A stretch of 64,000 bases of DNA from Clostridia bacterium (GCA_045604405.1 JAZUNZ010000018.1:69519-133518), one strand, 5' to 3'. Counted from the first letter of the stretch, positions 8,415 to 64,000 are shown. Made by a program: numbers and translations. Notes: a model not told the origin generated them from the sequence alone.

Positions 8415-10766
8415 ATGATATTTGAAGAAGATTTAGTAGTTGAAGAAAGGGTAAATATAAAAACAAATAGATTTAAACAAGTAGTTGATACTTTTAAAAG
8501 TTTATTTGATTACAAAACGATTCCATACCTTATAGTTCTTTTACTTACTTGTATGACAAGCTTTATGGGAGTAAGTCCATTTGGTATTGTAATGTTAGGA
8601 ATAGCCACGGTATTTAATATACCGCTTGCGGTGCCACTTATTGCAACCATTATATGTTATTTAATATTTGGCGCGGACGTAAGCATGTTTGTAAATTATG
8701 GACTAGTATATGTGTTATATATAGTATTTACCTCAGTTATAGAGATTGAAGGATATAGTAAAAAGTATATAACTATGATAAAACTGGCTGGAGCCACACT
8801 TATATCCAACGTAATAACATGTTTAATATTTAGGCAGACAAGCTTTTCTGTTTCCCAAGCCATAACACACTTATTGCTTACAGTATCATTTTACTCAGTG
8901 TTTACTTATGGGATGTCAATGTTACTTAACATTACTAAAAAGATTGTGTTTTCTAAAGAAGAAATTATAAGTTTTGGAATTGTATTATCATTGTTATTAA
9001 TACCGTTTTATAGATTTAGTATATTAGGCTTTAACATAGCTAATGTAATAATAATGGCAATAATTATGATTATTGCGTGGAAAAACGATTGGATGGTTGG
9101 TACTGCTACAGGAGTTTTAGTAGGGCTTATTTATACAATAGCTACTGGACAATCTTCGCTTGTACTTTCTGCATTTGCATTTTCTGGATTTATAGCGGGA
9201 GTACTTAATAGATACAATAAATATGTTGTAGTAGGAGCTTTTGTTATAGGAAATTTAGTGCTATCTTATGTGTATACTACAGATTTAATAATATGGAGTA
9301 AACTTGCTGAACTTCTAGTTGCTTCAGGCGTACTTTTAGTTTTACCAAAAAAACTTATACTAAAACTAGAAGATTTATTTGGCACTAATACTAATGGCCT
9401 AAAAAGAGGATATGAAAATTTACTTGGCGCAGGTAATGAAATAAAAGAAAGACTAAATGCCATGTCAGAGGTTTTCGAAAACTTGGCACATATAACGACA
9501 CCTGTAACAGAAGAAACAATTGATGAAACAAAAAATGTCATAAAAAAGTATTTAGAAGATTATAAGAAAAATGAATGTATCAGTTGCAAGAACAAATTAA
9601 ATTGTTTGAGAGATGAACTTGATATAGTTTCTGAACATATAGCAAAAAGGCTGGAAGAAAACAAGCCTATAACTCAAGAGATGCTGCCTGTAGATTGTGA
9701 TTTGAAACAAGAACTTTTGGAAAATATAACTGACATATATAGCAACGTTAAACTGATGAGAATTGTTAAACAAAAAGAGGATGAATCAAACAGAAAGCTT
9801 GCAGAGGAATATAAAACTATATCTAGTTTAATTAAAAATATTGCAAGAGAAGACAAACCTGTAAAAACAGATACTCCAGAACAAAAGAGGATTCGCGAAG
9901 AATTAAAATATATGGGGTATGTGGTATATGAAGATGGCTATGAGAACACAGAATCAGTTAAATATTATGAGTTCATAACAGATATTTTAGTAGATATAGA
10001 TAAAGCAAAAAGAGAAATACAAAAAATAGTAAGTGATGTGATGGGGACTAATATGAGTATAAAACTAGTTCTAAACAGCAGTAAAACTGAAAAATCTAGA
10101 ATAAAGCTTATACCAAGTAGCAAATATGTAGTAAAGGCTGTAGTAAAACAAGTTAGAAAAGCAGACAGCATGGTAAGCGGAGACTCATACATTGTAACAG
10201 AGCTTAAAGATAATAGTAAGATTATAGCTATAAGTGACGGAATGGGTTCTGGAGTGAAATCTAAAGAGGTTAGTGAAACAGTTATATCTATGATAGAGAA
10301 GATGGGAGCTAGCGGATTTAACAAGCAAGAAATATTAGATATAATAAACAAGCTTGTAAAGCTTAAAGAAAGTGGAGAAACTTCGGCAACGCTAGACATG
10401 TGTGCTATAAACGAGAGAGACAACATCTTGGAATTTATAAAACTTGGAGCAGCTCCTTCATATATAATAGAAAATGATGAAATTGTAGAGATAAAACAAG
10501 ATAATATGCCAATGGGACTTGTTTCTAGTATAAAGTACACAGCAATTGAAAGACCTGTTAATAAAGGGGATTTTGTAGTGCTAATTTCAGACGGGGCAGT
10601 AAGTGATGTGAACAAAACAGCTCTTCAAGATATATTGGAAAGTTTAAAAGAAGAATCTGAAATTACAGAGAAAAATCTTATGGATAGAATAATGGCCCGT
10701 GTAGTTGGTAGCCAAAACAAGATAGTGCTAGACGACGTAACGGTAGTTGTTTGTAAAATAGCATAA
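8415..10766 (+). CDS. spoIIE: stage II sporulation protein E (PP2C phosphatase)
   Basis: About 10 N-terminal TM segments, a central region and a C-terminal PP2C domain (SGDSY ... ISDGMGSG ... LISDGA ... DDVTVVV). ATG at 8415 follows AGAGGTG. Confidence 0.9.
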   Translation: MIFEEDLVVEERVNIKTNRFKQVVDTFKSLFDYKTIPYLIVLLLTCMTSFMGVSPFGIVMLGIATVFNIPLAVPLIATIICYLIFGADVSMFVNYGLVYVLYIVFTSVIEIEGYSKKYITMIKLAGATLISNVITCLIFRQTSFSVSQAITHLLLTVSFYSVFTYGMSMLLNITKKIVFSKEEIISFGIVLSLLLIPFYRFSILGFNIANVIIMAIIMIIAWKNDWMVGTATGVLVGLIYTIATGQSSLVLSAFAFSGFIAGVLNRYNKYVVVGAFVIGNLVLSYVYTTDLIIWSKLAELLVASGVLLVLPKKLILKLEDLFGTNTNGLKRGYENLLGAGNEIKERLNAMSEVFENLAHITTPVTEETIDETKNVIKKYLEDYKKNECISCKNKLNCLRDELDIVSEHIAKRLEENKPITQEMLPVDCDLKQELLENITDIYSNVKLMRIVKQKEDESNRKLAEEYKTISSLIKNIAREDKPVKTDTPEQKRIREELKYMGYVVYEDGYENTESVKYYEFITDILVDIDKAKREIQKIVSDVMGTNMSIKLVLNSSKTEKSRIKLIPSSKYVVKAVVKQVRKADSMVSGDSYIVTELKDNSKIIAISDGMGSGVKSKEVSETVISMIEKMGASGFNKQEILDIINKLVKLKESGETSATLDMCAINERDNILEFIKLGAAPSYIIENDEIVEIKQDNMPMGLVSSIKYTAIERPVNKGDFVVLISDGAVSDVNKTALQDILESLKEESEITEKNLMDRIMARVVGSQNKIVLDDVTVVVCKIA

Positions 10767-10839
10767 TTTAAAGGAGGAAATTTAAAAAGAATTTCCTCTT
10801 TTTGTTATATAGTATCAAAATGAATAATATATTAGTTAT

Positions 10840-12126
10840 ATGGTACAAGAAATTATATCCAATATAAATAATTATATCTGGGGATATCCGTTTATTATTC
10901 TGCTTACAATAACTAGCATATATCTTAGTATTAAGTTGAAATTTCCGCACATAAAAATACTTACTGCAACTAAGGAGTTATTCAAAAGTAAAGATGATGG
11001 AAACAAAAATAAAATTACATCGTTTAAATCTTTAATGACAGTACTTGCTGGAACATTAGGCACAGGAAATATAACGGGAGTCGCATTAGCAATAGCGATT
11101 GGTGGCGTTGGAAGCCTTTTTTGGCTATTTGTATCGGGTATACTTGCTATGGTAATTTCGTATGCAGAAAATTTAGTGGTACTAAAATATAGGAAGAAAG
11201 ACAAAACAAAAGGATACTATGGTGGAACAATGTATGTTTTAGATGAGATACTGGACAAAAAAAGATTAGCAATATTATTTGCGCTAGTTGTTGCCGTGTC
11301 TGCTGTGTGTACTGGAACGATGACACAATCTAATTCATTGGTTACAATACTTAATGCAAGTTTAGGAATAGATAAAAGAATTGTAGGATTTATGCTTGCG
11401 ATTCTAACAGCATATATTGTGTTTGGCGGGAAAAGAAGAATTGCAAAAATAAGTAGCATAGTAATACCAATTTGTACTGTAAGCTATGTAGCTTTATGCT
11501 TTCTAGTGTTATATATAAATAGGTATAACATACTACCAGGCTTAAAGGTAATACTTCAAAGTGCTTTTGGTATAAAGCAAGTGGCTGGAGGAATAGTTGG
11601 TATAAGTTTAAGCAAGATTATAGGAAGAGGATTTGCTATAGGGATGTTCTCGAATGAGGCGGGAATGGGAAGCGCACCAATATTTACAGCCACTGTAGAA
11701 GAGGAAGATATAGAGGTACAATCTAGGATTGCTGCAACAAGTGTTGTGATAGACACAATAATACTATGTATTCTAACAGGTGTAACGATAGTAAGTACAG
11801 GACTATATAATATACCAGATACGGGGATAATGCTAAATAGGGTATTTGGTATGGCGCCTTTTGGAAATATAATATTAAATGTTTGTATGGTGTTTTTTGT
11901 CATATCTACAATACCTTGTTGGGAGTACTATGGAGAAGAAGCTATAAAGTACTTATTTAAGTCGAATTTATCAATATATATTTTTAGAATACTTTATGTA
12001 ATAGGGATATATTTTGGAAGTATAATAATAGCGGAAGTTGTTTGGGATTTAGCTGGAATAGCGAATGCTTTAATGACACTGCCTAATTTATATATGATAT
12101 ATAAGTGTATAGATAAAAATATATAA
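10840..12126 (+). CDS. alanine/glycine:cation symporter (AGCS family)
   Basis: Polytopic membrane protein with FKSLMTVLAGTLGTGNITGVA and NEAGMGSAP motifs typical of AgcS. Confidence 0.85.
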   Translation: MVQEIISNINNYIWGYPFIILLTITSIYLSIKLKFPHIKILTATKELFKSKDDGNKNKITSFKSLMTVLAGTLGTGNITGVALAIAIGGVGSLFWLFVSGILAMVISYAENLVVLKYRKKDKTKGYYGGTMYVLDEILDKKRLAILFALVVAVSAVCTGTMTQSNSLVTILNASLGIDKRIVGFMLAILTAYIVFGGKRRIAKISSIVIPICTVSYVALCFLVLYINRYNILPGLKVILQSAFGIKQVAGGIVGISLSKIIGRGFAIGMFSNEAGMGSAPIFTATVEEEDIEVQSRIAATSVVIDTIILCILTGVTIVSTGLYNIPDTGIMLNRVFGMAPFGNIILNVCMVFFVISTIPCWEYYGEEAIKYLFKSNLSIYIFRILYVIGIYFGSIIIAEVVWDLAGIANALMTLPNLYMIYKCIDKNI

Positions 12127-51031: not shown

Positions 51032-51389
51032 GGGGGTGTAATGGTTTCGACGAATTTCTTAAAGTACAGATAGCGAGTAGTGGATGGCTGCTTTGGCCAC
51101 TGAAAAAAAGCAGATTTTAAAATTACACGCTGATAATAGATTAGCAATGGCTGCTTAGTATAACAAGCGCCTGTTCATATAATTTTTGCCGTAGGGATTA
51201 TATGGGCATCGATTATACGGCTAACAAAGTTATCTTTGCTATTAAGATAATGGGTATTTAAATAGCTACCAAGTATAAGTTTTGTATTTATTACGAGTAT
51301 GAGGGAAAGTTTAAATAAATACTGCACTCGGAGAAGTTTGTATGTATATAGATTTTCGGACACGGGTTCAATTCCCGTCACCTCCACCA
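51032..51389 (+). ncRNA. ssrA: tmRNA (SsrA)
   Basis: 5' GGGGGTGTAATGGTTTCGACG. 3' tRNA-like end GGACACGGGTTCAATTCCCGTCACCTCCACCA. Putative tag ORF at 51129-51158 reads (A)DNRLAMAA*. A TATAAT lies about 12 nt upstream. Confidence 0.9.
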
Positions 51390-51447: not shown

Positions 51448-51589
51448 GTTTGCGAAAAATATTTTCTTAGTCAACGTGTATTGTCTCGCAGAGCCCACGA
51501 GTTTTGATAGCATGTCATAACTCATAGGGGAGAACGATTTAGTTAAGTACACTAAAATCATTCTCCCCTTAAAATAAGTCATTTCAATA

Positions 51590-53344
<1,755 letters not shown>

Positions 53345-53364
53345 CTAAAAATCTAATAAAATTT

Positions 53365-54907
<1,543 letters not shown>

Positions 54908-54953
54908 TTAAATATCCTTTCTTGCAGGTAGCAAGAAGCGACCAAAGGGAGCT

Positions 54954-54993
54954 GTTACATAACTTTCTTCGAAAGTATGTAACCCACTATGAC
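54954..54993 (-). other. candidate oriT / nick region
   Basis: The minus strand reads GTCATAGTGGGTTACATACTTTCGAAGAAAGTTATGTAAC. This is a 13-bp hairpin next to an ATAGTG(G/T)G-TTA core that resembles the pMV158-type oriT as I recall it. It lies directly upstream of mob. Confidence 0.45.
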
Positions 54994-55558
54994 ACTTTCA
55001 AAACTTCGTTTTGCAAAGATGTCGTGGGCTCCTAGCGGAGTGCTCATAAATTATCTAATCTTGCGATAGATAATTTATGTTTGGCTTCGCCAAATCAAAA
55101 TAATATTTTCATCTCCATTCAAATATTATTTTGACTACTGAAAAATTTTTTGCATACCTGCATAAAATTTTTTCAGTATCTTCTTGCTATGCTTCGTAAG
55201 AATATAGAGCAATACCTATATAGTCTTTTTTAGCATAACAAAAAGACCCATTAGGCACAACAAATAAAACTACTAATATTGCATTTTTTTGCAAAGTAGT
55301 GAATTTTATTTGAAACATGCTAATCGGTCTTAACCACTGCTGGACATTTTACAAACAATTCTTCTAAACCAGCCAAATATTTTTCACCGCATTGGGTTAA
55401 TAAGTTTCCTACAAATCTTAATTTTCATTTTTGGAGAAAGATAGAAAATAGTTTATTGTATCCCTTACTAACCAGTGTTTCGTGTCTATTAATTTTTCAG
55501 TGTACTATAAAATACATCTATTATATATCATCTTTTTATGTAAATGTCAACGAAATAA

Positions 55559-55587
55559 TTGAATTTTATGTTAAATTGTGATAAAAT
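55559..55587 (+). promoter_or_regulatory. candidate promoter of the cargo operon
   Basis: TTGAAT, 17-nt spacer, TAAAAT with TGA extension. About 190 nt upstream of the first start codon. Confidence 0.3.
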
Positions 55588-55774
55588 AGTTACGTAATTT
55601 CTATGATTTACCAATATTCTATCGTTTTTTAGTAAAATCATTACGATTATTGGGATAATTATAAATTTAAATAATAAGGAGGTTTTGTTTAAAGTTTTTT
55701 ATTTTTTTATTAATTGAATAACAAAGGTAATTTGAACTAATTTAACAACAGTAATTAGCACAAGGAGGGCTAGT

Positions 55775-56674
55775 ATGAAACAGGATTGTATTTTAATTGC
55801 CACTTTACCATCACTTAACAATATGGAAAAAGTGCAGAGAGTTTTTGAAAATCCTCATATTTCTGAGGTACGGTTCAATACAGGAGTGCAAACTGCTTAC
55901 TCTATAGAAGAAACTCTTGAAATGCTGAAAAAGCTATCCATAAAGCATAACAAAAAGCTTTGGATAGATATCAAAGGCAGACAATTAAGAGTTACCAAAT
56001 GGGCTGATCCTTTATACTCTTGTATAGAGTTAAGCCACAGAGTACAGGTTTTGTATCCTGCACAGATTTACTTTCGCAATGGTGATAGAGTAAACATTAC
56101 TCACATCAAAGATGGCAACAAGCTGTTTGTAGACCCGTTACCACGACAGGCTTTGGGAGCAGGACAATCTGTTAATATTATTGCCAAAGACATTGAAGTT
56201 GATGGCTATTTAACAGAGAAAGACAAGCAGTATTTAAGAGCTTGTAGAAAACTGGATTTGACCTATATAATGGCTTCTTTTGTAGAGACTTTTGATGACT
56301 TGGCACAAATTCTTCATATTTTGCCTAATGCTCAAATAGTATCGAAAATTGAGTCGTTAAAAGGAATGTCCTTTATTTCTCAGTACAATGTCCCTAATCT
56401 GATGGCTGCAAGAGATGATTTATATCTGCAGTCTGGACAAAATTACAGTATGCTGAATCACTTAAAGACTATCATCGAAAGAGATAGTGGAGCGATTTGT
56501 GCATCTAAAATTTTCTTGTCGTTAGAGAAGAGAGAAACTGTCGATTTTGCAGACTTTGCAGACTTGGAATTAATGTATAACATGGGGTATAGAAAATTCA
56601 TGTTATGCGACAATGTATGCAATTATAGTTTTGCAAAAGCAATACAAGCATGGGAGGAATTTATCAATGGATAG
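55775..56674 (+). CDS. pyruvate-kinase-like TIM-barrel phosphotransferase (barrel only, no C-terminal domain)
   Basis: AAGGAGGG RBS. Aligns by eye with PK motifs: RFNTG (RxNxSHG), WIDIKGRQLRV (DTKGPEIR), TEKD, IVSKIES (SKIEN), MAARDDLY (MVARGDLG). Confidence 0.7.
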   Translation: MKQDCILIATLPSLNNMEKVQRVFENPHISEVRFNTGVQTAYSIEETLEMLKKLSIKHNKKLWIDIKGRQLRVTKWADPLYSCIELSHRVQVLYPAQIYFRNGDRVNITHIKDGNKLFVDPLPRQALGAGQSVNIIAKDIEVDGYLTEKDKQYLRACRKLDLTYIMASFVETFDDLAQILHILPNAQIVSKIESLKGMSFISQYNVPNLMAARDDLYLQSGQNYSMLNHLKTIIERDSGAICASKIFLSLEKRETVDFADFADLELMYNMGYRKFMLCDNVCNYSFAKAIQAWEEFING

Positions 56675-58127
56675 TTTAATTTTATGCGGTATGCAGTTTG
56701 GAGATGAGGGAAAAGGAACTTTTGTTGATTACCTGGCACATGAAAAGAATATTGATTGTGTTGTTCGGTACAATGGTGGTTCACAAGCATCTCATACTGT
56801 AATCACACCTTCAGCGGTTGTTCATAAGTTTAGCCAGCTTGGTTCAGGTATGTTTTTGGAAAAATGCCATACATACTTAACAGAAAATATGGTAATAAAC
56901 TTGGACAATCTTCTCATTGAAATGGAAGTCTTTTCAAATAAAACTGGAATCTCAATTCCAGAATTAATGGATAGAATCCATATTCACGAAAATTGTTTTG
57001 TTGTAACACCGTATCATAAGCTGATTAATAAACTTAGAGAATTCTCTAAAGGAGCTAATCGTAGAGGAACGGTGGGAACAGGTGTAAGCGAAGTTAAATA
57101 CTTACTTTCTGAACCAAAGTGTTTTCCGTATGAACGACCTCTTGGATTGCAAGTAAAGGAGATTTTTAATCCTTATAGCAATAATCCAACTATAGGCAGA
57201 TTGGAAGCACTTCAGAATTATGTATCTGCATTTTACCAAAGCAACAAAGATGTTATTTGGCAAAATGTTCCTGAAGAAATGAAGGAGGCTTTGGAGAGAG
57301 AAATTTCATTTTTACTTGCACCTAAAGCATTCTTAACTCTTGCTTCAGACTATGCAATAAAATTCAAGCAAGCACCACGAGATGTTAACTTTAATAAATG
57401 TATATATAATGCATATGAGTTGACTCTCAGAAAGAATTGCGTAAGTGCTATATTTGAGGGTTCGCAAGGACTTTTGATTGATGGCACTTATGGAATAAAG
57501 CCAAATACTACTTTTCTTGATACAACAAATCATTTTGCACTTGATATTTCCTATTATAGAGATAATATCACTAAAGTAGGAATAACAAAAGCATTCAATT
57601 CAAGACATGGATTGGGAATATTTCCTACTGAATCATCGTATTTAAGTAGAAACATTTCTGATGATAATCAAGAAGAGTCTTTTTGGAACGGTAAAATTCG
57701 TTTCGGATGGTTTGATGCAGTATTGTTTAGATATGCTCAAAACATTAATCAGGTTGATGAATTATATTTATCTTCTCTTGATAAACTAGATGGTTTTGAA
57801 ACTATCAAAGTATGTAATGAGTATCTCTATAATGGTATTGTTGACGAAAGGTTTGACGAGTTGTTTGCTTATTCTACATCGCCTGATGGCAAGATAACTA
57901 TTACAGACATCAAAGGAAGTGGAGAGGATTTAGGCAAATATTTAGAAAGATGTGTTCCCATTTATCTTTATGTTAGAGGATGGAAATCAGATATATCAAA
58001 TATTTCTGATAAATCACAACTTCCTGAAAAATGCTTAAATTACATTCTTTTATTGGAAGAACTTACAAAACTTCCTATAACAGTTGTATCTGTAGGACCG
58101 ACTAGGAATAATAAAATAAGGATGTGA
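56667..58127 (+). CDS. divergent adenylosuccinate-synthetase (PurA)-family enzyme
   Basis: ATG follows GGGAGGA and overlaps the upstream stop (ATGGATAG). QFGDEGKGTFVD, VVRYNGGSQASHT, GSQGLLID, RFGWFD, VVSVGPTR. Confidence 0.8.
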   Translation: MDSLILCGMQFGDEGKGTFVDYLAHEKNIDCVVRYNGGSQASHTVITPSAVVHKFSQLGSGMFLEKCHTYLTENMVINLDNLLIEMEVFSNKTGISIPELMDRIHIHENCFVVTPYHKLINKLREFSKGANRRGTVGTGVSEVKYLLSEPKCFPYERPLGLQVKEIFNPYSNNPTIGRLEALQNYVSAFYQSNKDVIWQNVPEEMKEALEREISFLLAPKAFLTLASDYAIKFKQAPRDVNFNKCIYNAYELTLRKNCVSAIFEGSQGLLIDGTYGIKPNTTFLDTTNHFALDISYYRDNITKVGITKAFNSRHGLGIFPTESSYLSRNISDDNQEESFWNGKIRFGWFDAVLFRYAQNINQVDELYLSSLDKLDGFETIKVCNEYLYNGIVDERFDELFAYSTSPDGKITITDIKGSGEDLGKYLERCVPIYLYVRGWKSDISNISDKSQLPEKCLNYILLLEELTKLPITVVSVGPTRNNKIRM

Positions 58128-58131
58128 TGGG

Positions 58132-58746
58132 ATGAATGTTCAAGAAGAAATTAGTAAGTATCTGCTAAGTCACGATACAGTAAATGTTGTAATCGCAGGC
58201 ACTACGTGTTCTGGAAAAACAACTTTAGCCAATGAAATTCGGAATCATTTTTCGGATAGATATTCGGTTACACTAGTTGCTCAGGATGATTATTTTAAGA
58301 ATCTTCCTGATATTCCAAGAGTACGAGAAGGATATTTAACTGATTCTATTGAAGCCTTTCATACTATTGAGTTCAAGCACGATGTGCAAAAGTTGCTTAC
58401 AAATGGAGTTGCTACAATGCCGAGATATGACATTGCTACAAACACAAGAGTAAGCAAAAACAAAATAGTAAGGGCTGGTAGGATTAATGTCTTTGAGGGC
58501 TTGCATACAATTCAGCTTTTAGGTGAGTTAGATAACTGTATTAAGATTTTCGTTGATACAGATATCGATATTTGCTTAAAAAGAAGAATTGCAAGAGACA
58601 CATCGAAATTTGGCGTACCTGAAGTAAGAATACGTCAGTATTGGAATGACTGTGTAAAACCTATGTGCGAGAGATTTATCTTTCCGCAAAAGGAAGATGC
58701 AGACATCACCATAGATCGTAAAGGCGGTGAATTTAATGACAGTTAA
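58132..58746 (+). CDS. uridine kinase / phosphoribulokinase-family P-loop nucleoside kinase
   Basis: Walker A IAGTTCSGKTT. DDYF, PRYD, VFEGLH, IFVDTDIDICLKRRIARD match the Udk pattern. Confidence 0.75.
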   Translation: MNVQEEISKYLLSHDTVNVVIAGTTCSGKTTLANEIRNHFSDRYSVTLVAQDDYFKNLPDIPRVREGYLTDSIEAFHTIEFKHDVQKLLTNGVATMPRYDIATNTRVSKNKIVRAGRINVFEGLHTIQLLGELDNCIKIFVDTDIDICLKRRIARDTSKFGVPEVRIRQYWNDCVKPMCERFIFPQKEDADITIDRKGGEFNDS

Positions 58747-59779
58747 GCAAATCTATGAAAAGCTGTTGCAGGCAAAACGACCTATTGAATTCTTTGGTGA
58801 AATGTCTACAGATGATGAGTTAAAAAAAGCATACAAACAATATGCAAAAAAAATTCATCCAGACATTGTACCTGATAAGGATAAATACATTGCAGGTGAA
58901 GCTTTTTCAGTCCTGAATAAATTATACAATTTAGGATTAAGCGAATTAGAGCAAGGTATTTATGGTATCGTTGATCCTGTTCAGATTTACAAGCACATGA
59001 CACCTTTATTTGAAATTACAATAAAAGGTGAATTGTATCAGTTCTATGAGAATGTGTTTGAGGGAGAAGTTGGTTATATTTTTAAGGGAACTTCAGCTAA
59101 TGATATTGTTTACTTGAAAGTGGCAATTGATCCTGATGACAATGATTTGATTAATACTGAATACAATGTGCTTTCTACCTTAAGGCATCAATCACTTCCG
59201 TATGTTGAGCAAAAAATCATGGTAAATGATACAAATGCTATTCTTATGCGTGAAGTAAAAGGTGTAACAATGCCCGAATTAATGGGGCAATACGCAAGAG
59301 GAGTTCCTGCTGAACATGTTATGTGGATGTTGGAAAGACTTTTGAGTGTTGTAGGCTATTTACATTCAAACCGTGTAGTACATGGAAATATAAAACCTGA
59401 AAATATCATTATTAACAAAGATAATCATAATGTATCGTTGTTAGGATTTTCGTTTTGTATTCCAAATGCTAATACTTCGGAAGCTCAGTATAAGATCATA
59501 AATGATTTTTATACAGCTCCTGAGGTAAAGAAGACTGCTAGAGTCTTACCATCTTCGGATGTTTATTCTATAGGTAAGATTGCAATTAAACTTTTAGGAG
59601 GTGACGTTGTTAGTAACGGAATGCCGATTTCTGTAGATGCGAGAGTTCGAGCATTTATCAGAAAAATGGTAAGTAGTACCCCATCTGATAGACCAGATGA
59701 TGCATGGAAACTTTGGAGTGAGCTTGCAAAGCTCAGAACTGAAGTTTTTGGAACCCAAAGATTCAAAAAAATAGATTAA
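58736..59779 (+). CDS. J-domain protein fused to a Hanks-type (pseudo)kinase domain
   Basis: J domain: DDELKKAYKQYAKKIHPD...FSVLNKLY. Kinase fold: VYLKVAI, HGNIKPENIII (HRD Asp -> Asn), LLGFSF (DFG Asp absent), TAPE, DVYSIGK. The start may be GTG at 58727. Confidence 0.75.
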   Translation: MTVKQIYEKLLQAKRPIEFFGEMSTDDELKKAYKQYAKKIHPDIVPDKDKYIAGEAFSVLNKLYNLGLSELEQGIYGIVDPVQIYKHMTPLFEITIKGELYQFYENVFEGEVGYIFKGTSANDIVYLKVAIDPDDNDLINTEYNVLSTLRHQSLPYVEQKIMVNDTNAILMREVKGVTMPELMGQYARGVPAEHVMWMLERLLSVVGYLHSNRVVHGNIKPENIIINKDNHNVSLLGFSFCIPNANTSEAQYKIINDFYTAPEVKKTARVLPSSDVYSIGKIAIKLLGGDVVSNGMPISVDARVRAFIRKMVSSTPSDRPDDAWKLWSELAKLRTEVFGTQRFKKID

Positions 59780-59792
59780 GGAGGATTTTATC

Positions 59793-60758
59793 ATGGGTGG
59801 TTCTAGTTATGACAGAGACGTTTACGAAGAAAGCTCCAGCTCGGGCTGGGGAAGTTCTTACGGCAGTAGTTTTGGGACAAGTTCTGAATCTGCAAAGAAG
59901 TTTACAAGCACTACTTTGCATAGTTCGATGAATCCCAACGGCAAAATCTTGAAGAGCAACTCTAAGTCACCTATTATCGTAGTGCTTGACGTGACTGGCT
60001 CTAATATTGATTTTGCAAGAGTAGTTTACGACAAATTACCGATGTTTTACGGACAGATTGAGCAGAAAGGTTATCTGGAAGACTTCGAGATTTCTTTCTG
60101 TGCAGTGGGTGATGCATATCACGATGAATATCCGTTGCAGATTGGTGACTTCGCAAAAGGCATTGAGCTTGATTCTTGGCTTGAGAAAGTTGTCCTTGAA
60201 GGTGGCGGTGGTGCATTTGGAGAAGAATCCTATGAGCTTGCTGCATATTATCTGCTTAAAAATGCGGAATTCGAAAAAGGAGCTAAGCCTATTATCTTCT
60301 TTATTGGAGATGAAAAGCCGTATCCTACTGTGGATCGTTCGCAGGCAGAGAAATTTGGAATTGAATTTTTCCAGAGTGTAGAACCTTTTGGAGAGCTTCG
60401 GAAAAAAGTTAATGATAACGTATTTCTGTTGCTTAACAAAGCTTGCGGAAAATACTTCAAAGATGATATCACATCTTGCTGGGAAAAGCTTTTAGCACCT
60501 GAGCACGTGATTAAAATCAGCGAAGAAAAAGCAATTATCGACTTGATGTTGGGAGTTATTTCGATGGTTTCTTCGGCAAGAACTCTTGAAACATACAAAG
60601 TTGATATGCTTGACAGAGGTCAGACACAGGCAAGAATCGAAGGTGTTTCGAAATCCCTTGCAGGATTGTCGACTGCTCTTGTTCCTGTTAAGGTTACTGG
60701 AGCTATTGCAAAAACTGCAAGTGATAAGAAGAGCACTCAGAAAGGAAAAAGACTTTAA
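59793..60758 (+). CDS. von Willebrand factor A (vWA)-like protein with Ser/Gly-rich N-terminus
   Basis: AAGGAGGA RBS. IIVVLDVTGSN (DxTxS MIDAS-like), GGGG...ES, IFFIGDEKP. Called by architecture. Confidence 0.6.
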   Translation: MGGSSYDRDVYEESSSSGWGSSYGSSFGTSSESAKKFTSTTLHSSMNPNGKILKSNSKSPIIVVLDVTGSNIDFARVVYDKLPMFYGQIEQKGYLEDFEISFCAVGDAYHDEYPLQIGDFAKGIELDSWLEKVVLEGGGGAFGEESYELAAYYLLKNAEFEKGAKPIIFFIGDEKPYPTVDRSQAEKFGIEFFQSVEPFGELRKKVNDNVFLLLNKACGKYFKDDITSCWEKLLAPEHVIKISEEKAIIDLMLGVISMVSSARTLETYKVDMLDRGQTQARIEGVSKSLAGLSTALVPVKVTGAIAKTASDKKSTQKGKRL

Positions 60759-60787
60759 TCAAAACAATTATTAATAATTTATGATTA

Positions 60788-60821
60788 GCACAAGGCACAC
60801 TAGATTTAGTGTGCCTTTGTG
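60788..60821. terminator. strong hairpin after the cargo operon
   Basis: GCACAAGGCACACTA-gatt-TAGTGTGCCTTGTGC (15-bp perfect stem), between the convergent vWA and tnpV genes. T tail is weak. Confidence 0.55.
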
Positions 60822-60831
60822 CTTGTAAATT

Positions 60832-61194
60832 CTAATTATAAATATATCTTTCAAAAATTATTTCTTCCACAGAACTTTTTATATTATTCATTTTTTGTAC
60901 CCATTCCAGTTGATTATTAGCTTTTAATTCCTCTGTTATATTTTCTTTTTCTGCAAATTGTTTCATTAAAAGTTCAAATTGCTTTTGACATTCTATATCA
61001 ATATTATATAAATGTTCATCTAATTTATTATCCATAAACAAAATAATATATTCGGCTTTTTTATGATTTTTTAAATAATTCAATCTCATTCTTCCATATT
61101 TACCCAAATGATAATTTTTAAATTTATTTTCTTCAAGCTTTAAGTTTGGTAAATAATAATCTCCAACTTTGTTATATGTAATTTTATTATTCAT
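60832..61194 (-). CDS. tnpV: TnpV-family transposon protein
   Basis: ATG at 61194 follows AGGAGGA. YYLPNL...GKYGRMRLNYL...ITEELKANNQLEWVQKMNNI matches the TnpV pattern of Tn4451-type elements. Confidence 0.7.
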   Translation of the reverse strand: MNNKITYNKVGDYYLPNLKLEENKFKNYHLGKYGRMRLNYLKNHKKAEYIILFMDNKLDEHLYNIDIECQKQFELLMKQFAEKENITEELKANNQLEWVQKMNNIKSSVEEIIFERYIYN

Positions 61195-61401
61195 TTCAAA
61201 AATCCTCCTAAAATTTAATTTCACTACTTTTAGAACTATAAATTTATATCTGTTTTGCTGTCTAAAATTTAAAGTGTACTTAACTTAAGTCTACTGGGTT
61301 AGGACATATGACACAGTCAAAGTCGCTTCTAAAGTATTGAATTTTTAACATAAATATAGTATGATATACACACAATTTAATAATAGAAAGTGGGGATAAG
61401 T

Positions 61402-61977
61402 ATGAATATAATTAAGAACCAGCTAGTGAATAGAAATAATGTAAATATCGATTTCGAATTACAGCCTAATGAAGTTATAATTGTATGTAATAATTATATA
61501 AAGGAAGAATTGTTGAAAAAAGGAGTAACTTTTAAAGAGATGTATCCTGGTGTATTTATAGTTACTTCTTTAAAAGGTAATTCAACTTTGCAAGATATAA
61601 ATAAGATTACTATGGTAATTAGATTATATAATCCAGACTTAATAGATGAAGGTAATTTAGTTTCTCAAATGTCTGAGGAAAAAATGGATGCATTTTTTCA
61701 AAAACATCATTGGGGTGTTGAAAAAAGAAAGAAAAAAATGAATATAAAAAAATGTGAATATAAAGGAAAAGAAGATGATTATGAACCAGGGACTTTAATT
61801 GTTACTTATCAAGAAGGTAAAATGGGTAGAGAATATACTTTCAAATTTGGAGATGGTTGGACACAATTACTTGGATACACCAAAGATGAGGTGCGAATAG
61901 AAGAGGTATGGGATAGATATTTATTTAACGAAACTGTAAAATCATGGCTCGAAAATGGTTATGATTCTGCAGAATAG
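61402..61977 (+). CDS. hypothetical protein (191 aa)
   Basis: ATG follows AAGTGGGGA. A terminator lies at 62028-62066 (ATACTCCAGCA...TGCTGGAGTAT plus T run). Confidence 0.5.
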   Translation: MNIIKNQLVNRNNVNIDFELQPNEVIIVCNNYIKEELLKKGVTFKEMYPGVFIVTSLKGNSTLQDINKITMVIRLYNPDLIDEGNLVSQMSEEKMDAFFQKHHWGVEKRKKKMNIKKCEYKGKEDDYEPGTLIVTYQEGKMGREYTFKFGDGWTQLLGYTKDEVRIEEVWDRYLFNETVKSWLENGYDSAE

Positions 61978-62340: not shown

Positions 62341-62820
62341 TTATTCCCATTTTGTCATGGTATAATATTTTGTTAATGCTATATTAATGTTATTCCAATC
62401 GTTTAAAGTAATTTTTGTTAATTTGCCTTTTGTTCTATGAGGATTAATTATTCTTAACTTACTTATATTTTTAAGTTGTTCTATTAAAACCGTTGAATTA
62501 TGATTTTCTAAATCTATATGATACCATCTTGTATCATTCATTCTTTCAGAAGTTAAAGGTAATATCGTACAAATAGGAGAATTTCTTTTTGTTTTTACAA
62601 CTAATACAGGTCTAATTTTATTTTGTTCACTACCAATATTTATTCCTAAATTGCACCAATAAATATAATTACTTGTTATAGGAAAGCTAGGAATATCTTT
62701 TTTAAATTTCATATTAGCTTTATCTTTAGTCCAAGTAGCATATTCAATAGCACTAGATTCATCTATATCACTTAAAATATCTATTGTTTCATTAAATTGT
62801 TTATTTATTTCTTTGTTCAT
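62341..62820 (-). CDS. MazF/PemK-family toxin-like protein with a ~55-aa N-terminal extension
   Basis: IYWCNLGINIGSEQNKIRPVLVV...ILPLTSE matches the PemK core. No SD-like sequence upstream, and no adjacent small ORF. Confidence 0.6.
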   Translation of the reverse strand: MNKEINKQFNETIDILSDIDESSAIEYATWTKDKANMKFKKDIPSFPITSNYIYWCNLGINIGSEQNKIRPVLVVKTKRNSPICTILPLTSERMNDTRWYHIDLENHNSTVLIEQLKNISKLRIINPHRTKGKLTKITLNDWNNINIALTKYYTMTKWE

Positions 62821-63035: not shown

Positions 63036-64000
63036 TTATTTGTTTCTTAATTCGTTATACAAGCTAATAACAAAAGCATTTATTTCATCAGACTTTGTTT
63101 CTACATCTTTCAGAAGCAAGAACTGATTTAAAAATCTGTCTTTATTATGAGTTTTGTGTTTGATTTTGAAGTAAACATCGTTGTTGATATAGTCCGTCAA
63201 AAATCTTAAAGCGAGCTCATAGGTAAGAATTTTTATTGACAGCCCTATATATTTTACCTCTTCATAAGTTAAGAAGTTTGCCATTTCTTCCAAATAACCC
63301 TTAAGATACGACTTTGTAAGTTCCAAGTTCAAGAATATCTTGTCTGGATCTGTTTCATCTTCAAAACAGTTGGAACACGCAGAACGTATTCCGTCGCCGA
63401 TATCAAACAAGATGGAACCAGGCATTACGGTATCCAGGTCGATAACAGCGATACCTTCGTTGCTTGTAGAACTCATAAGCACATTGTTAAGCTTTGTGTC
63501 GTTATGAGTAACTCTTACAGGGATGGTTTTGCCCATGCTGTTCCAGATAACAGAATACTCTTTTATCTTTGAAATCAAATAAATGATTTCGTGCGGATTC
63601 TCAAAGGCTCTATTTGTAACACCATTTTCAATGGCTGTTAATAAATCTTGGAATCTCTTGGGAGTATTGTGGAAATTAGGAATAGTTTCGGCAAGAAGAT
63701 TTACAGGGAAGTCGCTTAAGAGCTTATGAAAAAAGCCAAAACATTTTCCTGCGTGATAAGCTACCAAGTTTGGATTATCACATTCGCCAAAATTGTTATA
63801 TGAAATACAGGGATCTATATATTCATATACTCTGTAGTATTCTTTTTCGCAATCTGCGTTAGTGTACGTGTACATTAAATTGCCTTCGCGCGTTCGAATA
63901 AAGGTAAGAGTCTGGTAGGTCTTATCCGGAATAATATCCAGCTTAGCTTTGATATGTTGAGTTATAAGCCCGATATTTTTCATAACAAGGTAAGGTTCTT
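63036..64000 (-). CDS. N-acetylhexosamine 1-kinase-like phosphotransferase (APH/NahK family), 5' end outside window
   Basis: IPNFHNTPKRF, VRVTHNDTKLNNVLM, VIDLDTVMPGSILFDIGD. The frame stays open beyond ATG 63983 to the window edge. Confidence 0.75.
   Translation of the reverse strand, partial: EPYLVMKNIGLITQHIKAKLDIIPDKTYQTLTFIRTREGNLMYTYTNADCEKEYYRVYEYIDPCISYNNFGECDNPNLVAYHAGKCFGFFHKLLSDFPVNLLAETIPNFHNTPKRFQDLLTAIENGVTNRAFENPHEIIYLISKIKEYSVIWNSMGKTIPVRVTHNDTKLNNVLMSSTSNEGIAVIDLDTVMPGSILFDIGDGIRSACSNCFEDETDPDKIFLNLELTKSYLKGYLEEMANFLTYEEVKYIGLSIKILTYELALRFLTDYINNDVYFKIKHKTHNKDRFLNQFLLLKDVETKSDEINAFVISLYNELRNK

Follow-up and report, generated by a model that had tools for sequence, protein, structure and literature searches.

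The window analyzed here, a 64,000-nt stretch from a Clostridia bacterium, contains a five-gene operon (g1-g5) carried by a mobilizable transposon. The relevant features, in window coordinates, are as follows.

51032-51389: tmRNA gene, adjoining the transposon
51513-61313 (about), minus strand: Tn4451-family mobilizable transposon (Pfam, inverted repeats)
51513-51553 and 61273-61313: imperfect terminal inverted repeats (I1)
51590-53254, minus strand: TnpX-type serine recombinase (Pfam Resolvase, Recombinase, Zn_ribbon_recom, DUF4368)
53365-53631, minus strand: TnpW (Pfam TnpW)
53621-54907, minus strand: TnpZ/Mob_Pre (Pfam Mob_Pre)
55559-55587, plus strand: operon promoter, TTGAAT, 17-nt spacer, extended -10 TGTGATAAAAT (consensus scan)
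55585-55700, plus strand: conserved 5' leader, 14-bp stem around ~35 nt (RNAalifold, covariance model)
55775-56674, plus strand: g1, mini pyruvate kinase (PK) with A and B domains and no C domain, 299 aa (Pfam, AF2, Foldseek)
56667-58127, plus strand: g2, PurA paralogue, predicted GTP/catalytic site intact, aspartate pocket replaced, 486 aa (PF00709)
58132-58746, plus strand: g3, Udk/PRK-family nucleoside kinase, 204 aa (Pfam PF00485)
58736-59779, plus strand: g4, J-domain and predicted pseudokinase protein, 347 aa (Pfam DnaJ, Pkinase)
59793-60758, plus strand: g5, vWA-fold protein, 321 aa (AF2, Foldseek)
60787-60823, plus strand: operon terminator hairpin, 16-bp stem, 4-nt loop (direct sequence reading)
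60832-61224, minus strand: TnpV (Pfam TnpV)

Architecture of the operon and its carrier

The ORF listing of the window confirmed five plus-strand ORFs at 55775-60758, and the tight coupling of co-directional genes claimed in a preliminary description holds for both coordinates and junctions. The g2 ATG overlaps the g1 TAG within ATGGATAG (56667-56674), TGGG (58128-58131) separates g2 from g3, g3 and g4 overlap by 11 nt (ATGACAGTTAA, 58736-58746), and a 13-nt spacer, GGAGGATTTTATC, precedes the g5 ATG at 59793. For g4, the GTG start at 58727 given by the ORF tool was set aside in favor of the ATG at 58736, which better matches the N-termini of homologues. Every gene is preceded by an AGGAGG-type ribosome-binding site, and one promoter and one terminator bracket the translationally coupled set. 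The terminator is the single strong hairpin noted earlier after the last gene, and the operon does run antiparallel to the mobility genes, on the opposite strand from tnpX, tnpW, tnpZ, and tnpV.

The operon lies within the Tn4451-family element, bounded by its Pfam-identified genes and inverted repeats, which bears out its proposed status as transposon cargo. The complete element, cargo included, recurs at ~81% identity in a Clostridium MAG contig. The Tn4451 carrier family classically bears resistance genes, such as catP on Tn4451. At 35.6%, operon GC content stands above that of the transposon backbone (27.3%) and the window (29.9%); the statement in the preliminary description that several 60-nt lines reach 50% GC was overstated, with 1 of 83 lines at 50% or more and 7 at 45% or more. 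The peak of 53% falls in the Ser/Gly-rich start of g5.

The promoter is kept in an alignment of the regions upstream of 10 loci. Nucleotide homology with chromosomal copies of the operon begins at ~55555, and cassette homology with other loci stops at ~60820. The 5' leader is a putative conserved RNA element: RNAalifold supports a 14-pair stem in which compensatory double changes affect 4 pairs, and 3' of the stem come an invariant AAGGAGG and then a conserved run rich in T, which reads TTTTG in the window. A covariance model of the leader (R1) found it only upstream of g1, at 12 Clostridia-clade loci, and comparison with Rfam gave no family match.

Predicted properties of the encoded proteins

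All five domain calls of the preliminary description were upheld, including "pseudokinase" (HRD to HGN, DFG lost) and "vWA" (AF2 and Foldseek). Sequence and model indicate that g1 adopts the pyruvate-kinase fold and has kept every catalytic motif. It matches the Pfam PK barrel (5.6e-12), its family profile retrieves only pyruvate kinases from the PDB, and its AF2 model (pLDDT 91.8) returns pyruvate kinases for all of the top 50 Foldseek matches (TM 0.70-0.79). The motifs RxN, DxKGRQLR, KIES, and MAARDDL are kept across phyla, from Clostridia to archaea. The nucleoside kinase g3 matches PF00485 (5e-20), its closest PDB match is the Thermus uridine kinase, and it scores 112.8 bits against the NCBIfam uridine kinase model, below the cut-off of 180.

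Although g2 matches PF00709 at 8.4e-75, it falls far under the NCBIfam cut-offs for both PurA and PurZ (for the latter, 40.8 bits versus 300). All that PurA requires for GTP binding and lactam-oxygen phosphorylation is retained in g2: the P-loop, Gln224, Asp333 for guanine specificity, and the equivalents of the base Asp13 and the acid His41. Across 52 non-redundant family members, D13, K16, H41, and D333 are invariant and Q224 is kept in 51. The aspartate pocket, T300-T301-G-R303 in PurA, reads [W/Y/F]-[Q/N]-G in g2 members. V273 is replaced by His, T300 by Trp, Tyr, or Phe, and R303 is deleted, each in 52/52; T301 is likewise absent from all 52 (Gln or Asn in 50), and N38 has become Gln (46/52) or His (6/52). 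The 5'-phosphate loop is also altered relative to PurA. Because T301 and R303 are absent from every member, the canonical aspartate reaction should not be possible for g2; with the aspartate-binding residues missing throughout the family, the enzyme is predicted not to make adenylosuccinate.

These features bear on whether the enzymes are ordinary purine/pyrimidine salvage paralogues, or a cassette for resistance to, or biosynthesis of, a nucleoside-analogue antibiotic. All three do belong to salvage or energy-metabolism families, and the classical resistance cargo of the carrier would suit a cassette. However, g1, g2, and g3 all score far under NCBIfam equivalog cut-offs, g1 lacks the PK C domain, and g2, deprived of its aspartate site, would be unable to complement purA. 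Constant linkage to the vWA gene and the usual presence of the J-pseudokinase would go unexplained, and an antibiotic cassette, the alternative offered in the preliminary description, is hard to square with candidate-phylum bacteria, archaea, and phages. We find this explanation scarcely credible.

The Pfam matches of g4 are DnaJ (30.6 bits, cut-off 27.8) and Pkinase (8.7e-21). The HPD motif is present in 42/45 homologues, and the HRD aspartate is missing from all 45 (HGN, HGA, or HGS); a HMMER alignment with CDKL5 places HGN opposite HRD. In 20 of the 45, the window copy among them, the DFG aspartate is gone as well. By these motifs, the kinase fold is a pseudokinase in which the catalytic aspartate is never present. 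No match to g5 was found in Pfam, NCBIfam, or PADLOC, but its AF2 model (pLDDT 82.7) retrieved integrin beta-I and vWF-A3 folds in Foldseek with probability 1.0. The protein has MGGxSYDRDV as its N-terminal peptide, a linker rich in Ser, a DxTxS motif that resembles a MIDAS (Dx[TS]xS in 54/54 members), and a C-terminal ..KRL tail. Its termini are conserved yet disordered: in the AF2 model the first 25 residues show no ordered structure and are tethered via the Ser-rich linker, and the N-terminus, with an aromatic-acidic motif after the start, is kept down to ~27-30% identity. The protein starts with MG in 107/150 cluster representatives, the remainder being mostly truncated or starting with MS, MA, or MC.

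Distribution, conserved core, and genomic context

The core genes recur in ~60 loci, and identical genes in identical order in ~30 independent loci; the five-gene arrangement is far beyond chance. Bacterial hosts are Clostridia, Bacilli, Bacteroidota, Ignavibacteriota, Leptospiraceae, Myxococcota, and Saccharibacteria; the gene set also occurs in Methanosarcinales MAGs and Rhodococcus plasmids, and the module in ~200 Bxz1-type mycobacteriophages and other large phages. The possibility, raised beforehand, that the genes do not co-occur elsewhere falls away, since they are found together across phyla. The preliminary description had placed the three metabolic enzymes at the center of the system, whereas the invariant core is the vWA protein and the PurA-like enzyme, usually with the J-pseudokinase. 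Wherever a locus has sufficient flanking sequence, g5 lies next to g2 or close by, some viral contigs hold only these two genes as minimal loci, and the J-domain (HPD) pseudokinase accompanies the core in most lineages. The PK-like and Udk-like genes are accessories confined to particular lineages: the former is absent from the versions in Saccharibacteria, Rhodococcus, and Bxz1-type phages, and the latter occurs only in loci with the g1-to-g5 order (Clostridia, Bacilli, Tenericutes, Muribaculaceae, and Ignavibacteriales MAGs).

That g5 and g2 are the only pair common to every version, two-gene viral loci included, would fit a protein-directed ligase. Here g2 would join a purine nucleotide via C6 to the g5 N-terminus ("N-terminal purinylation"), the alpha-amine freed by Met removal (mostly that of Gly2) would replace aspartate as nucleophile, and the J-pseudokinase with DnaK would present or remodel the g5 substrate. 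The conserved g5 N-terminus, whose MS, MA, and MC variants also permit Met removal, and its modeled disorder and tether would fit such a substrate, and g2 has lost exactly the residues that bind the two carboxylates of aspartate, now an aromatic and an amide. Dedicated supply enzymes (Udk-like, PK-like), however, point to small-molecule chemistry at high flux rather than to a protein that is modified stoichiometrically; some members lack Gly2, and no g5-g2 fusion proteins occur among the 150 best representatives. To our knowledge, no such N-terminal modification has been described, and we consider this activity improbable.

Among the 150 nearest ORFs at 41 loci, housekeeping genes dominate, NrtR-type regulators are the top family, and defence genes are not enriched; a few ORFs match defence profiles, such as the MADS components mad2, mad3, and mad8. 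An NrtR-type Nudix-wHTH regulator lies near the module in 13 loci of four phyla, and the Leptospiraceae accessory is an RppH-like Nudix; the window copy has no NrtR gene. One Saccharibacteria locus (L046) provides a detailed NAD-salvage context, with the order PncA-NadR-PnuC-ADP-ribosylglycohydrolase-Sir2-[module]-NrtR-NadE-NadD. In Vibrio phage pv27, the g5-g2 pair lies a few kb downstream of anaerobic ribonucleotide reductase genes, with an exonuclease gene directly downstream. In one common Clostridia species, which is recorded in 287 blocks of the assembly collection, the operon holds a stable chromosomal position between housekeeping genes. The module has no linked Hsp70 gene.

This context weighs on the earlier proposal of a conflict system. 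In an abortive-infection type of anti-phage or anti-plasmid defence, the vWA protein and J-pseudokinase would sense infection, through phage proteins that titrate DnaK or a phage protein that binds the MIDAS, and release the PurA-like enzyme. With substrates from its Udk-like and PK-like companions, it would make a toxic or chain-terminating nucleotide analogue or, alternatively, drain GTP, IMP, and PEP. A sporadic, horizontally transferred spread over very distant phyla at varying genomic positions is consistent with defence, as are the window operon's place as cargo with GC above its carrier and the few MADS matches. Defence-type modules are often carried by phages, the combination of a regulatory pair with an enzyme recalls immune systems, and CmdTAC is a precedent for chaperone-coupled toxin control. 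Direct support is lacking, however: PADLOC assigned no system to the operon (no match for g1, g2, or g5, and generic kinase matches only for g4), the flanks are mainly housekeeping and NrtR genes, the locus is fixed between housekeeping genes in a common Clostridia species, and the Saccharibacteria module sits inside a NAD-salvage cluster. Moreover, the Bxz1-type mycobacteriophages carrying the module are lytic, another large phage has it near nucleotide-metabolism genes, and the operon encodes no nuclease, pore, or NADase effector. We judge a defence role rather unlikely, while keeping it as a real contender. No description of the five-gene module was found in the literature, and no defence profile matched it, in agreement with the initial view that the combination is undescribed.

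Proposed mechanism and relation to known systems

Given an altered PurA relative, its constant vWA partner, and their spread over bacteria, archaea, and phages, the operon probably encodes an unknown nucleotide chemistry. Our main reading, held tentatively and at somewhat less than even chances, is a chaperone-assisted nucleotide-conversion system of cells and phages, a self-contained, horizontally mobile module with the PurA paralogue at its center. As the residues lost and gained in g2 suggest for the nucleotide and the amine, g2 would use GTP to activate IMP at C6, or a different NMP at the corresponding oxo group, and install ammonia (one-step re-amination) or another small amine; with an amine other than aspartate, the product would differ from adenylosuccinate. 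In the window version, g3 would make the NMP from a nucleoside and g1 would use PEP to recharge GDP to GTP and/or take the product to the triphosphate, so that GTP and PEP would drive the pathway.

In the same scheme, g4 and g5 would form an Hsp70-coupled adaptor, not a signaling kinase pair. The g5 MIDAS and terminal peptides may grip a client while the g4 J domain fires DnaK. Together they would carry out assembly, activation, or resetting of the enzyme, as an Hsp70-based counterpart of the MoxR-vWA activase pairs. vWA proteins are established co-chaperones of remodelling ATPases (PMC7159879). The module would serve nucleotide or cofactor (adenylate or NAD-linked) homeostasis in small-genome and gut bacteria, with co-option by large phages and, in the window, carriage as transposon cargo. 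Several points weigh against nucleotide conversion. A plain metabolic enzyme has no obvious need for an obligatory vWA protein and J-protein, an architecture also compatible with a sensor-effector immune system, and an adaptor role alone leaves the small-residue/aromatic-acidic peptide of g5 unexplained. With no linked Hsp70 gene, the DnaK connection rests on the J domain only. Furthermore, NrtR-family regulators can sense ligands besides ADP-ribose, and the window copy lacks NrtR and is carried by a transposon whose family is known to bring resistance genes with it.

Among known systems, NARP1/NARP2 (phage NAD+ reconstitution) and the NrtR regulons are likewise small phage or cell enzyme sets that rebuild a nucleotide cofactor; NrtR-type regulators occur at 13 of our loci, and NAD-salvage genes at the one Saccharibacteria locus. 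We know of no enzyme family that NARP1/NARP2 share with the module, and no NAD-related reaction is assignable to g1, g2, or g3. Prokaryotic viperins with nucleotide kinases are a precedent for defence by modified nucleotides, as is CmdTAC for chaperone-gated effectors, but the module has no radical-SAM enzyme, toxin-antitoxin pair, or defence-island context, which leaves an analogy only. The TerY-P triad (vWA TerY, PP2C phosphatase, Ser/Thr kinase) also sets a vWA protein beside a Hanks-type kinase fold, and a weak TelA-like gene lies near one related locus (L056). In contrast, the module carries a J domain on a kinase fold without the catalytic aspartate (45/45) and includes a PurA-like partner foreign to Ter systems, and PADLOC made no TerY-P assignment for the operon. 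With neither phosphatase nor catalytic kinase, the parallel drawn earlier is superficial.

The phage PurZ pathway for the Z-base (2-aminoadenine), with MazZ/DatZ, likewise relies on a PurA paralogue, carried by viruses, whose substrate use has changed, and on accessory enzymes that feed the nucleotide pool or alter its make-up; in PHROGs, g2 and PurZ share one broad family (phrog_1211). PurZ still condenses aspartate and depends on host PurB (PMC12884076), whereas the aspartate residues are missing in g2; the operon has no MazZ, DatZ, or DpoZ, and a vWA or J-protein partner of PurZ is not reported in PMC12884076. For g4 and g5, the best mechanistic analogy is the MoxR-vWA pairs (CbbQ-CbbO, NorQ-NorD, RavA-ViaA), in which a MIDAS vWA adaptor works in concert with a remodeller driven by ATP and has its gene next to that of the enzyme it presumably services. 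We found no literature report of Hsp70 recruitment through a J-domain pseudokinase with a vWA adaptor. The module has no MoxR AAA+ gene; its remodeller would instead be host Hsp70, engaged via the J domain on the pseudokinase scaffold.

A transposon-borne five-gene operon

The operon comprises five genes (g1–g5), which the preliminary description had proposed as a novel nucleotide-based conflict system at 55775-60758. The features of the operon, its carrier and its surroundings are as follows.

51032-51389: tmRNA gene, with the carrier element inserted immediately 3' of it
51513-51553 and 61273-61313: imperfect 41-nt terminal inverted repeats (71% complementary), bounding an element of ~9.8 kb
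Strand opposite to the operon: genes for a TnpX-type large serine recombinase, TnpW, TnpZ and TnpV, with Pfam matches for all four
55559-55587: operon promoter, upstream of the 5' leader
55585-55700: 5' leader, upstream of g1
55775-56674, + strand: g1 (ORF call), mini pyruvate kinase
56667-58127, + strand: g2 (ORF call), PurA-like protein
58132-58746, + strand: g3 (ORF call), Udk/PRK-family kinase
58736-59779, + strand: g4 (ORF call), J domain and pseudokinase
59793-60758, + strand: g5 (ORF call), vWA protein
60787-60823: operon 3' hairpin with a 16-bp stem, read in the sequence
62341-62820, - strand: PemK/MazF-family toxin gene, immediately beyond the transposon's right end
63036-63983, - strand: APH-family phosphotransferase gene, also just outside the right end

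All five ORFs and their junctions lie exactly where the preliminary description had placed them. Genes g1 and g2 overlap by 8 nt (ATGGATAG), a 4-nt spacer (TGGG) separates g2 from g3, g3 and g4 overlap by 11 nt (ATGACAGTTAA), and a 13-nt spacer precedes g5, with an AGGAGG-type ribosome-binding site at every start. At 35.6%, the operon has a higher GC content than the element around it (27.3%) and the window as a whole (29.9%); the earlier statement that several 60-nt lines reach 50% GC was too strong, as just one line does. A canonical purA gene was not found in the window, where g2 is the sole PurA-like gene. A 12-mer (ATTAGCACAAGG) occurs twice in the 64 kb, at 55754-55765 and 60784-60795, and brackets the cargo: one copy lies right before the ribosome-binding site of g1, and the second makes up the terminator hairpin's left arm. 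Its role as a cassette boundary is unproven, since at least two matches arose in 7 of 100 shuffles and the repeat is not present in related loci.

The carrier is, from its gene content, a predicted mobilizable transposon of the Tn4451/Tn4453 family. Its TnpX-type recombinase contains Resolvase, Recombinase, Zn ribbon and DUF4368 domains, and its TnpZ is a Mob_Pre protein (Pfam). The interval between tnpZ and tnpV contains the five-gene operon only, with no catP-like resistance gene and no other gene. Both backbone and cargo are matched at ~81% identity on a 10.8-kb contig from an uncultured Clostridium MAG (L008; L-numbers denote loci found in other genomes or contigs), which indicates that the combination of transposon and cargo is an established lineage. 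Chromosomal copies of the operon match the window at the nucleotide level from ~55555 to 60820, so the transferred unit consists of promoter, leader, five genes and terminator. Beyond the right end of the element, a 195-aa ORF at 61390-61977 has no Pfam match.

The 5' leader is conserved and can fold into a stem of 14 bp, 4 of whose pairs are compensatory, around ~35 nt; a tiny ORF within the leader is possible. The stem is followed on its 3' side by an invariant AAGGAGG, resembling a Shine-Dalgarno element, and then by a conserved T-rich stretch. Promoter and structured leader are common to the operons of the Clostridia clade, and a covariance model of the leader matched only upstream of g1, at 12 loci of that clade. 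An Rfam scan of the operon 5' region matched no known riboswitch or family. We consider the leader a candidate cis-regulatory RNA; a ligand of this RNA could point to the metabolite of the pathway.

Conserved and lost residues in the five proteins

The PurA-like protein g2 belongs to PF00709 (8.4e-75) and shares 27% identity with E. coli PurA, for which an approximate reference sequence was used. It scores 219.9 and 202.1 against the curated NCBIfam purA models, with cut-offs of 402 and 395.55, respectively. A census of 52 non-redundant family members, numbered according to canonical PurA, showed that the GTP-binding and catalytic residues are kept: D13 and K16 of the GDEGKG P-loop, H41 and the guanine-specific D333 are found in 52/52, and Q224 in 51/52. 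Around these, N38 is replaced by Gln (46) or His (6), V273 is His in 52/52, and the 5'-phosphate loop changes from GTTGRGIGP to G[ST]xGxG[VI][SG]E. The TTGR loop is altered throughout the family, with T300 replaced by Trp, Tyr or Phe in 52/52 and T301 by Gln or Asn in 50/52, and with R303 deleted in 52/52. HMMER alignments of g2 to two other bacterial PurA structures showed the aspartate loop to be replaced likewise. This residue pattern suggests that GTP-dependent activation chemistry is preserved and that the aspartate pocket is gone. With the L-aspartate-binding T301 and R303 lost and the equivalog cut-offs missed, an assignment of g2 as PurA was rejected. An assignment as PurZ was rejected as well, as g2 reaches 40.8 bits against NF038379 (cut-off 300) in a match confined to its N-terminal 116 residues, and the operon has no MazZ, DatZ or DpoZ gene.

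In g4, a J domain (Pfam DnaJ, 30.6 bits with a cut-off of 27.8) stands beside a Hanks-type kinase domain. Across 45 non-redundant homologues, the HPD tripeptide is present in 42, including archaeal, Saccharibacteria and phage copies, and the β3 lysine of the kinase domain is kept in 41. The HRD position, which a HMMER alignment with CDKL5 places at HGN, is never Asp in 45/45 (HGN in 33, HGA in 8, HGS in 2, and NGN or HGL in the other 2), and the DFG aspartate is lost in 20/45, among them the copy in the window (GFS). An active Hanks-type Ser/Thr kinase was rejected because of these losses, and g4 is, as judged from its motifs, a pseudokinase scaffold bearing a predicted Hsp70-recruiting domain. 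No Hsp70 gene was found near the module among the ORFs inspected, nor among the 25 commonest Pfam families in a census of 150 flanking ORFs.

The g5 protein has no match in Pfam, NCBIfam or PADLOC. Its AlphaFold 2 model (pLDDT 82.7) retrieved integrin βI and vWF-A3 domains with Foldseek at a probability of 1.0, and a MIDAS-like Dx[TS]xS motif together with D107, D173 and E174 is invariant in 54/54 members. Modeling thus assigns g5 to the vWA fold with a predicted MIDAS. Its termini are disordered yet conserved, with an N-terminus of the type MGGxSYDRDV and a C-terminus that often ends in [KR]RL. Among the 150 best family representatives, 107 begin with MG, and the remainder are mostly truncated or begin with MS, MA or MC and continue into an aromatic-acidic motif; no g5-g2 fusion protein was found among the 150 best cluster representatives. 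In L037, a Methanosarcinales MAG, the J-pseudokinase and PK-like genes flank two tandem g5 paralogues (8783-9991 and 9992-11020). In these paralogues, the conserved MGG-type motif begins a few residues inside the called ORFs (VKQMGGETYSRPVG, VTKMGGGSYSRDV), which suggests that the true starts are downstream of the called ones.

The other two proteins are the putative enzymes g1 and g3. At 299 aa, g1 comprises an A-domain TIM barrel with an inserted B domain and has no C-terminal (allosteric/tetramerization) domain. It matches part of the Pfam pyruvate-kinase barrel, its family profile retrieved only pyruvate kinases from the PDB, and its AlphaFold model (pLDDT 91.8) returned pyruvate kinases as all of the best 50 Foldseek matches in the PDB (E ~1e-17, TM 0.70-0.79 on the query). 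The motifs RxN, DxKGRQLR, KIES and MAARDDL are kept from Clostridia to archaeal MAGs. With the C domain missing and a score of 46 bits against TIGR01064 (cut-off 306.4), g1 was rejected as a bona fide pyruvate kinase. The g3 protein retains the Udk/PRK fold and its motifs, including Walker A (PF00485, 5e-20), with Thermus uridine kinase as its best PDB match (2.4e-18); its NCBIfam scores are 108.4 for TIGR00235 (cut-off 220.3) and 112.8 for NF004018 (cut-off 180).

Gene orders and neighborhoods of the module

Relatives of the gene set, which we refer to as the module, are widespread. Hundreds of close relatives of the PurA-like protein were found in metagenomes, and the g5 family accounts for 1212 clusters at 50% identity (E ≤ 1e-10) in a set of 1.84 billion representatives. 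When genomic contexts were looked up and one genome per species was scanned, 50 genomic loci emerged, all of them in MAGs. The order g1-g2-g3-g4-g5 occurs in Clostridia, Bacilli, Tenericutes, Muribaculaceae and Ignavibacteriales; g4-g5-g1-g2, without the Udk-like gene, in archaeal (Methanosarcinales and one unclassified), Verrucomicrobia, Leptospiraceae, Myxococcota and Spirochaetes MAGs; and g4-g5-g2 in Saccharibacteria. Rhodococcus megaplasmids carry a set of g4-like, g5-like, PurA-like and Nudix-like genes.

Phages carry it as well. In Bxz1-type mycobacteriophages, a kinase, a vWA protein, a small ORF and a PurA-like protein are annotated together, and g5 matches 200 Mycobacterium phage records. 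In a subset of these phages (e.g., NC_054722.1 Sauce and OR613471.1 Yassified), the match to g5 is limited to residues 57-165 and the annotated feature is an HNH endonuclease, which suggests that their vWA gene is interrupted by a homing endonuclease or an intein-like insertion. In Vibrio phage pv27, a g5-g2 pair immediately precedes an exonuclease gene and follows the anaerobic ribonucleotide reductase genes at a distance of a few kb. Matches to g5 itself occur in two further phage genomes, one of 485 kb from an uncultured phage and one of 176 kb from human faeces, and six putatively viral IMG/VR contigs carry the module, some with g5 and g2 only. PHROGs families exist for g2, g4 and g5. Together, these gene orders indicate an invariant core of the vWA and PurA-like proteins, usually joined by the J-pseudokinase, with the PK-like and Udk-like enzymes as accessories.

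We then turn to what surrounds it. From 41 distinct loci, we collected the two ORFs closest to the module on either side (150 proteins), and the commonest Pfam families among them were NUDIX (13) and NrtR_WHD (12). PADLOC matches in this census were sparse and non-specific, the biggest class having 6 members of one candidate family. A targeted search showed that 13 loci (L019, L020, L027, L028, L029, L031, L033, L044, L045, L046, L053, L055 and L063) encode an NrtR-type protein, which combines a degenerate Nudix box with a winged helix, no more than ~550 bp from the module. Of these loci, six are from Bacilli, one from Muribaculaceae, five from Saccharibacteria and one from a Rhodococcus plasmid. 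This regulator is the commonest neighbor of the module, spanning four phyla in varied orientations, and in five of the six Bacilli loci it lies ~50 bp upstream on the same strand. The leader RNA may be its regulatory counterpart in the Clostridia clade. In L046 (Saccharibacteria), a complete set of NAD-salvage genes surrounds the module, in the order PncA-NadR-PnuC-ADP-ribosylglycohydrolase-Sir2-[g4 g5 g2]-NrtR-NadE-NadD. In two Leptospiraceae loci (L042, 8170-8643; L043, 4793-5275), the gene directly upstream of the J-pseudokinase encodes an RppH-like Nudix hydrolase, whose Nudix box is intact and which may supply NMP in place of the Udk-type kinase. In one Clostridia species, represented by 287 blocks in the assembly collection, the position of the operon is fixed, with glycosyltransferase genes on one side and rpiB/rpsT on the other.

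A weak TelA-like protein, an ORF of no recognized family and an AAA ATPase precede the module at 5706-8904 of L056, an IMG/VR contig; this locus is the sole hint of a link to Ter-type or AAA-remodeler systems.

These neighborhoods point to nucleotide or cofactor metabolism and away from a defence-island lifestyle, while a conflict role is still compatible with them. We regard it as unlikely, though worth keeping in view, that the module is a sensor-effector immune system.

A working model and comparison with known systems

The most economical reading of the module has four parts, with a chemistry drawn solely from conserved and lost residues. The PurA-like enzyme would use GTP to activate the oxo group of an NMP and then install an amine other than aspartate. 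The Udk-like kinase would supply the NMP from a nucleoside, a role that a Nudix enzyme may take in other lineages, and the PK-like enzyme would use PEP to recharge GDP or to finish the product. The J-pseudokinase and the vWA protein would form an Hsp70-coupled adaptor for the enzyme, in the manner of MoxR-vWA activases. A co-chaperone role of vWA domains has been summarized (PMC7159879).

Since the vWA partner is obligatory, the N-terminal peptide of g5 is conserved and starts with a small residue, and the residues lost from g2 are precisely the ligands of the aspartate carboxylates, other readings stay alive. The last two of these observations would fit ligation of a nucleotide to the N-terminus of g5, which on its own we consider quite improbable. 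Ordinary salvage or antibiotic-related functions appear very improbable indeed. A tentative and possible, if doubtful, joint reading is that the PurA-fold enzyme performs a GTP-dependent amination with a non-aspartate nucleophile, which would be either ammonia, so that an "AMP synthase" would turn IMP into AMP in one step and bypass PurB, or the amine at the N-terminus of the vWA protein, yielding a protein-nucleotide conjugate; that the J-domain pseudokinase and vWA protein constitute a new class of Hsp70-dependent adaptor; and that both belong to a nucleotide-reconstitution device of large phages and small-genome bacteria, run on GTP and PEP. In phages, such a device might counter immunity that depletes nucleotides or NAD.

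The preliminary description was right about the anatomy and novelty of the operon, but it misidentified the core, which is the vWA and PurA-like pair, and its defence reading is unproven. Scans of the five proteins with PADLOC, NCBIfam and PHROGs gave no system-level identity. In PADLOC-DB v2.0, g1, g2 and g5 have no matches, g3 has weak P-loop matches only, and g4 has generic kinase matches (MkoA and PD-T4-6); in the absence of any system-specific profile match, the module was rejected as a defence system cataloged there. The combination of genes had not been recognized as any described system in the preliminary description. Full-text searches for PurA-like genes with defence, vWA, J-domain, phage, PurZ and NrtR themes found no description of the module. 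The nearest mention is the annotation "PurA-like adenylosuccinate synthetase" in genome announcements of C1 mycobacteriophages. A 2020 paper on NTP-dependent conflict systems does not mention PurA (PMC7159879), and a study of PurZ groups such genes as "other PurA homologs" and sets them aside (PMC12884076). As no known system was matched and no description was found, we rate the module as categorically new as a system, assembled from known folds.

Regardless of whether the module serves salvage, phage takeover or counter-defence, or immunity, a function would follow for several hundred genes now annotated as "PurA-like", "kinase" or "hypothetical". At least eight bacterial phyla contain members of the g2 clade, as do archaeal MAGs, actinobacterial megaplasmids and hundreds of sequenced phages. 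The module is open to experiment in Bxz1-type phages of Mycobacterium smegmatis, on Rhodococcus plasmids and on the Clostridium transposon, and its recurrent NrtR and NAD-salvage context provides an entry point via ADP-ribose or related ligands.

The chemistry of PurA is textbook material, and PurZ, which opened the Z-genome field, is to our knowledge the only functionally divergent PurA paralogue so far. PurA shares with g2 the PF00709 fold and the GTP-binding and catalytic residues, whereas the aspartate site is absent from g2. PurZ differs in its companion genes MazZ, DatZ and DpoZ, which the operon in the window lacks, and g2 falls below the PurZ cut-off. A second PurA clade that has shed the aspartate site and kept the GTP activation machinery would imply an unrecognized nucleotide product or protein modification. 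TerY-P systems, which combine a vWA protein with a PP2C phosphatase and an active kinase, have the vWA fold in common with the module, whereas the module has no phosphatase gene and its kinase is dead, so it was rejected as a TerY-P triad; no TerY-P match was found for the operon proteins in PADLOC. The J-domain pseudokinase would offer a rare case, in bacteria and viruses, of a conserved pseudokinase scaffold. In MoxR-vWA activases, a MoxR-type AAA+ ATPase is encoded with the vWA protein, whereas neither the operon in the window nor most loci include an AAA+ gene, the exception being the unrelated AAA gene upstream of the module in L056; a MoxR-vWA system was therefore rejected. Pairing a vWA protein with a J-domain pseudokinase would give these activases their first Hsp70-linked counterpart.
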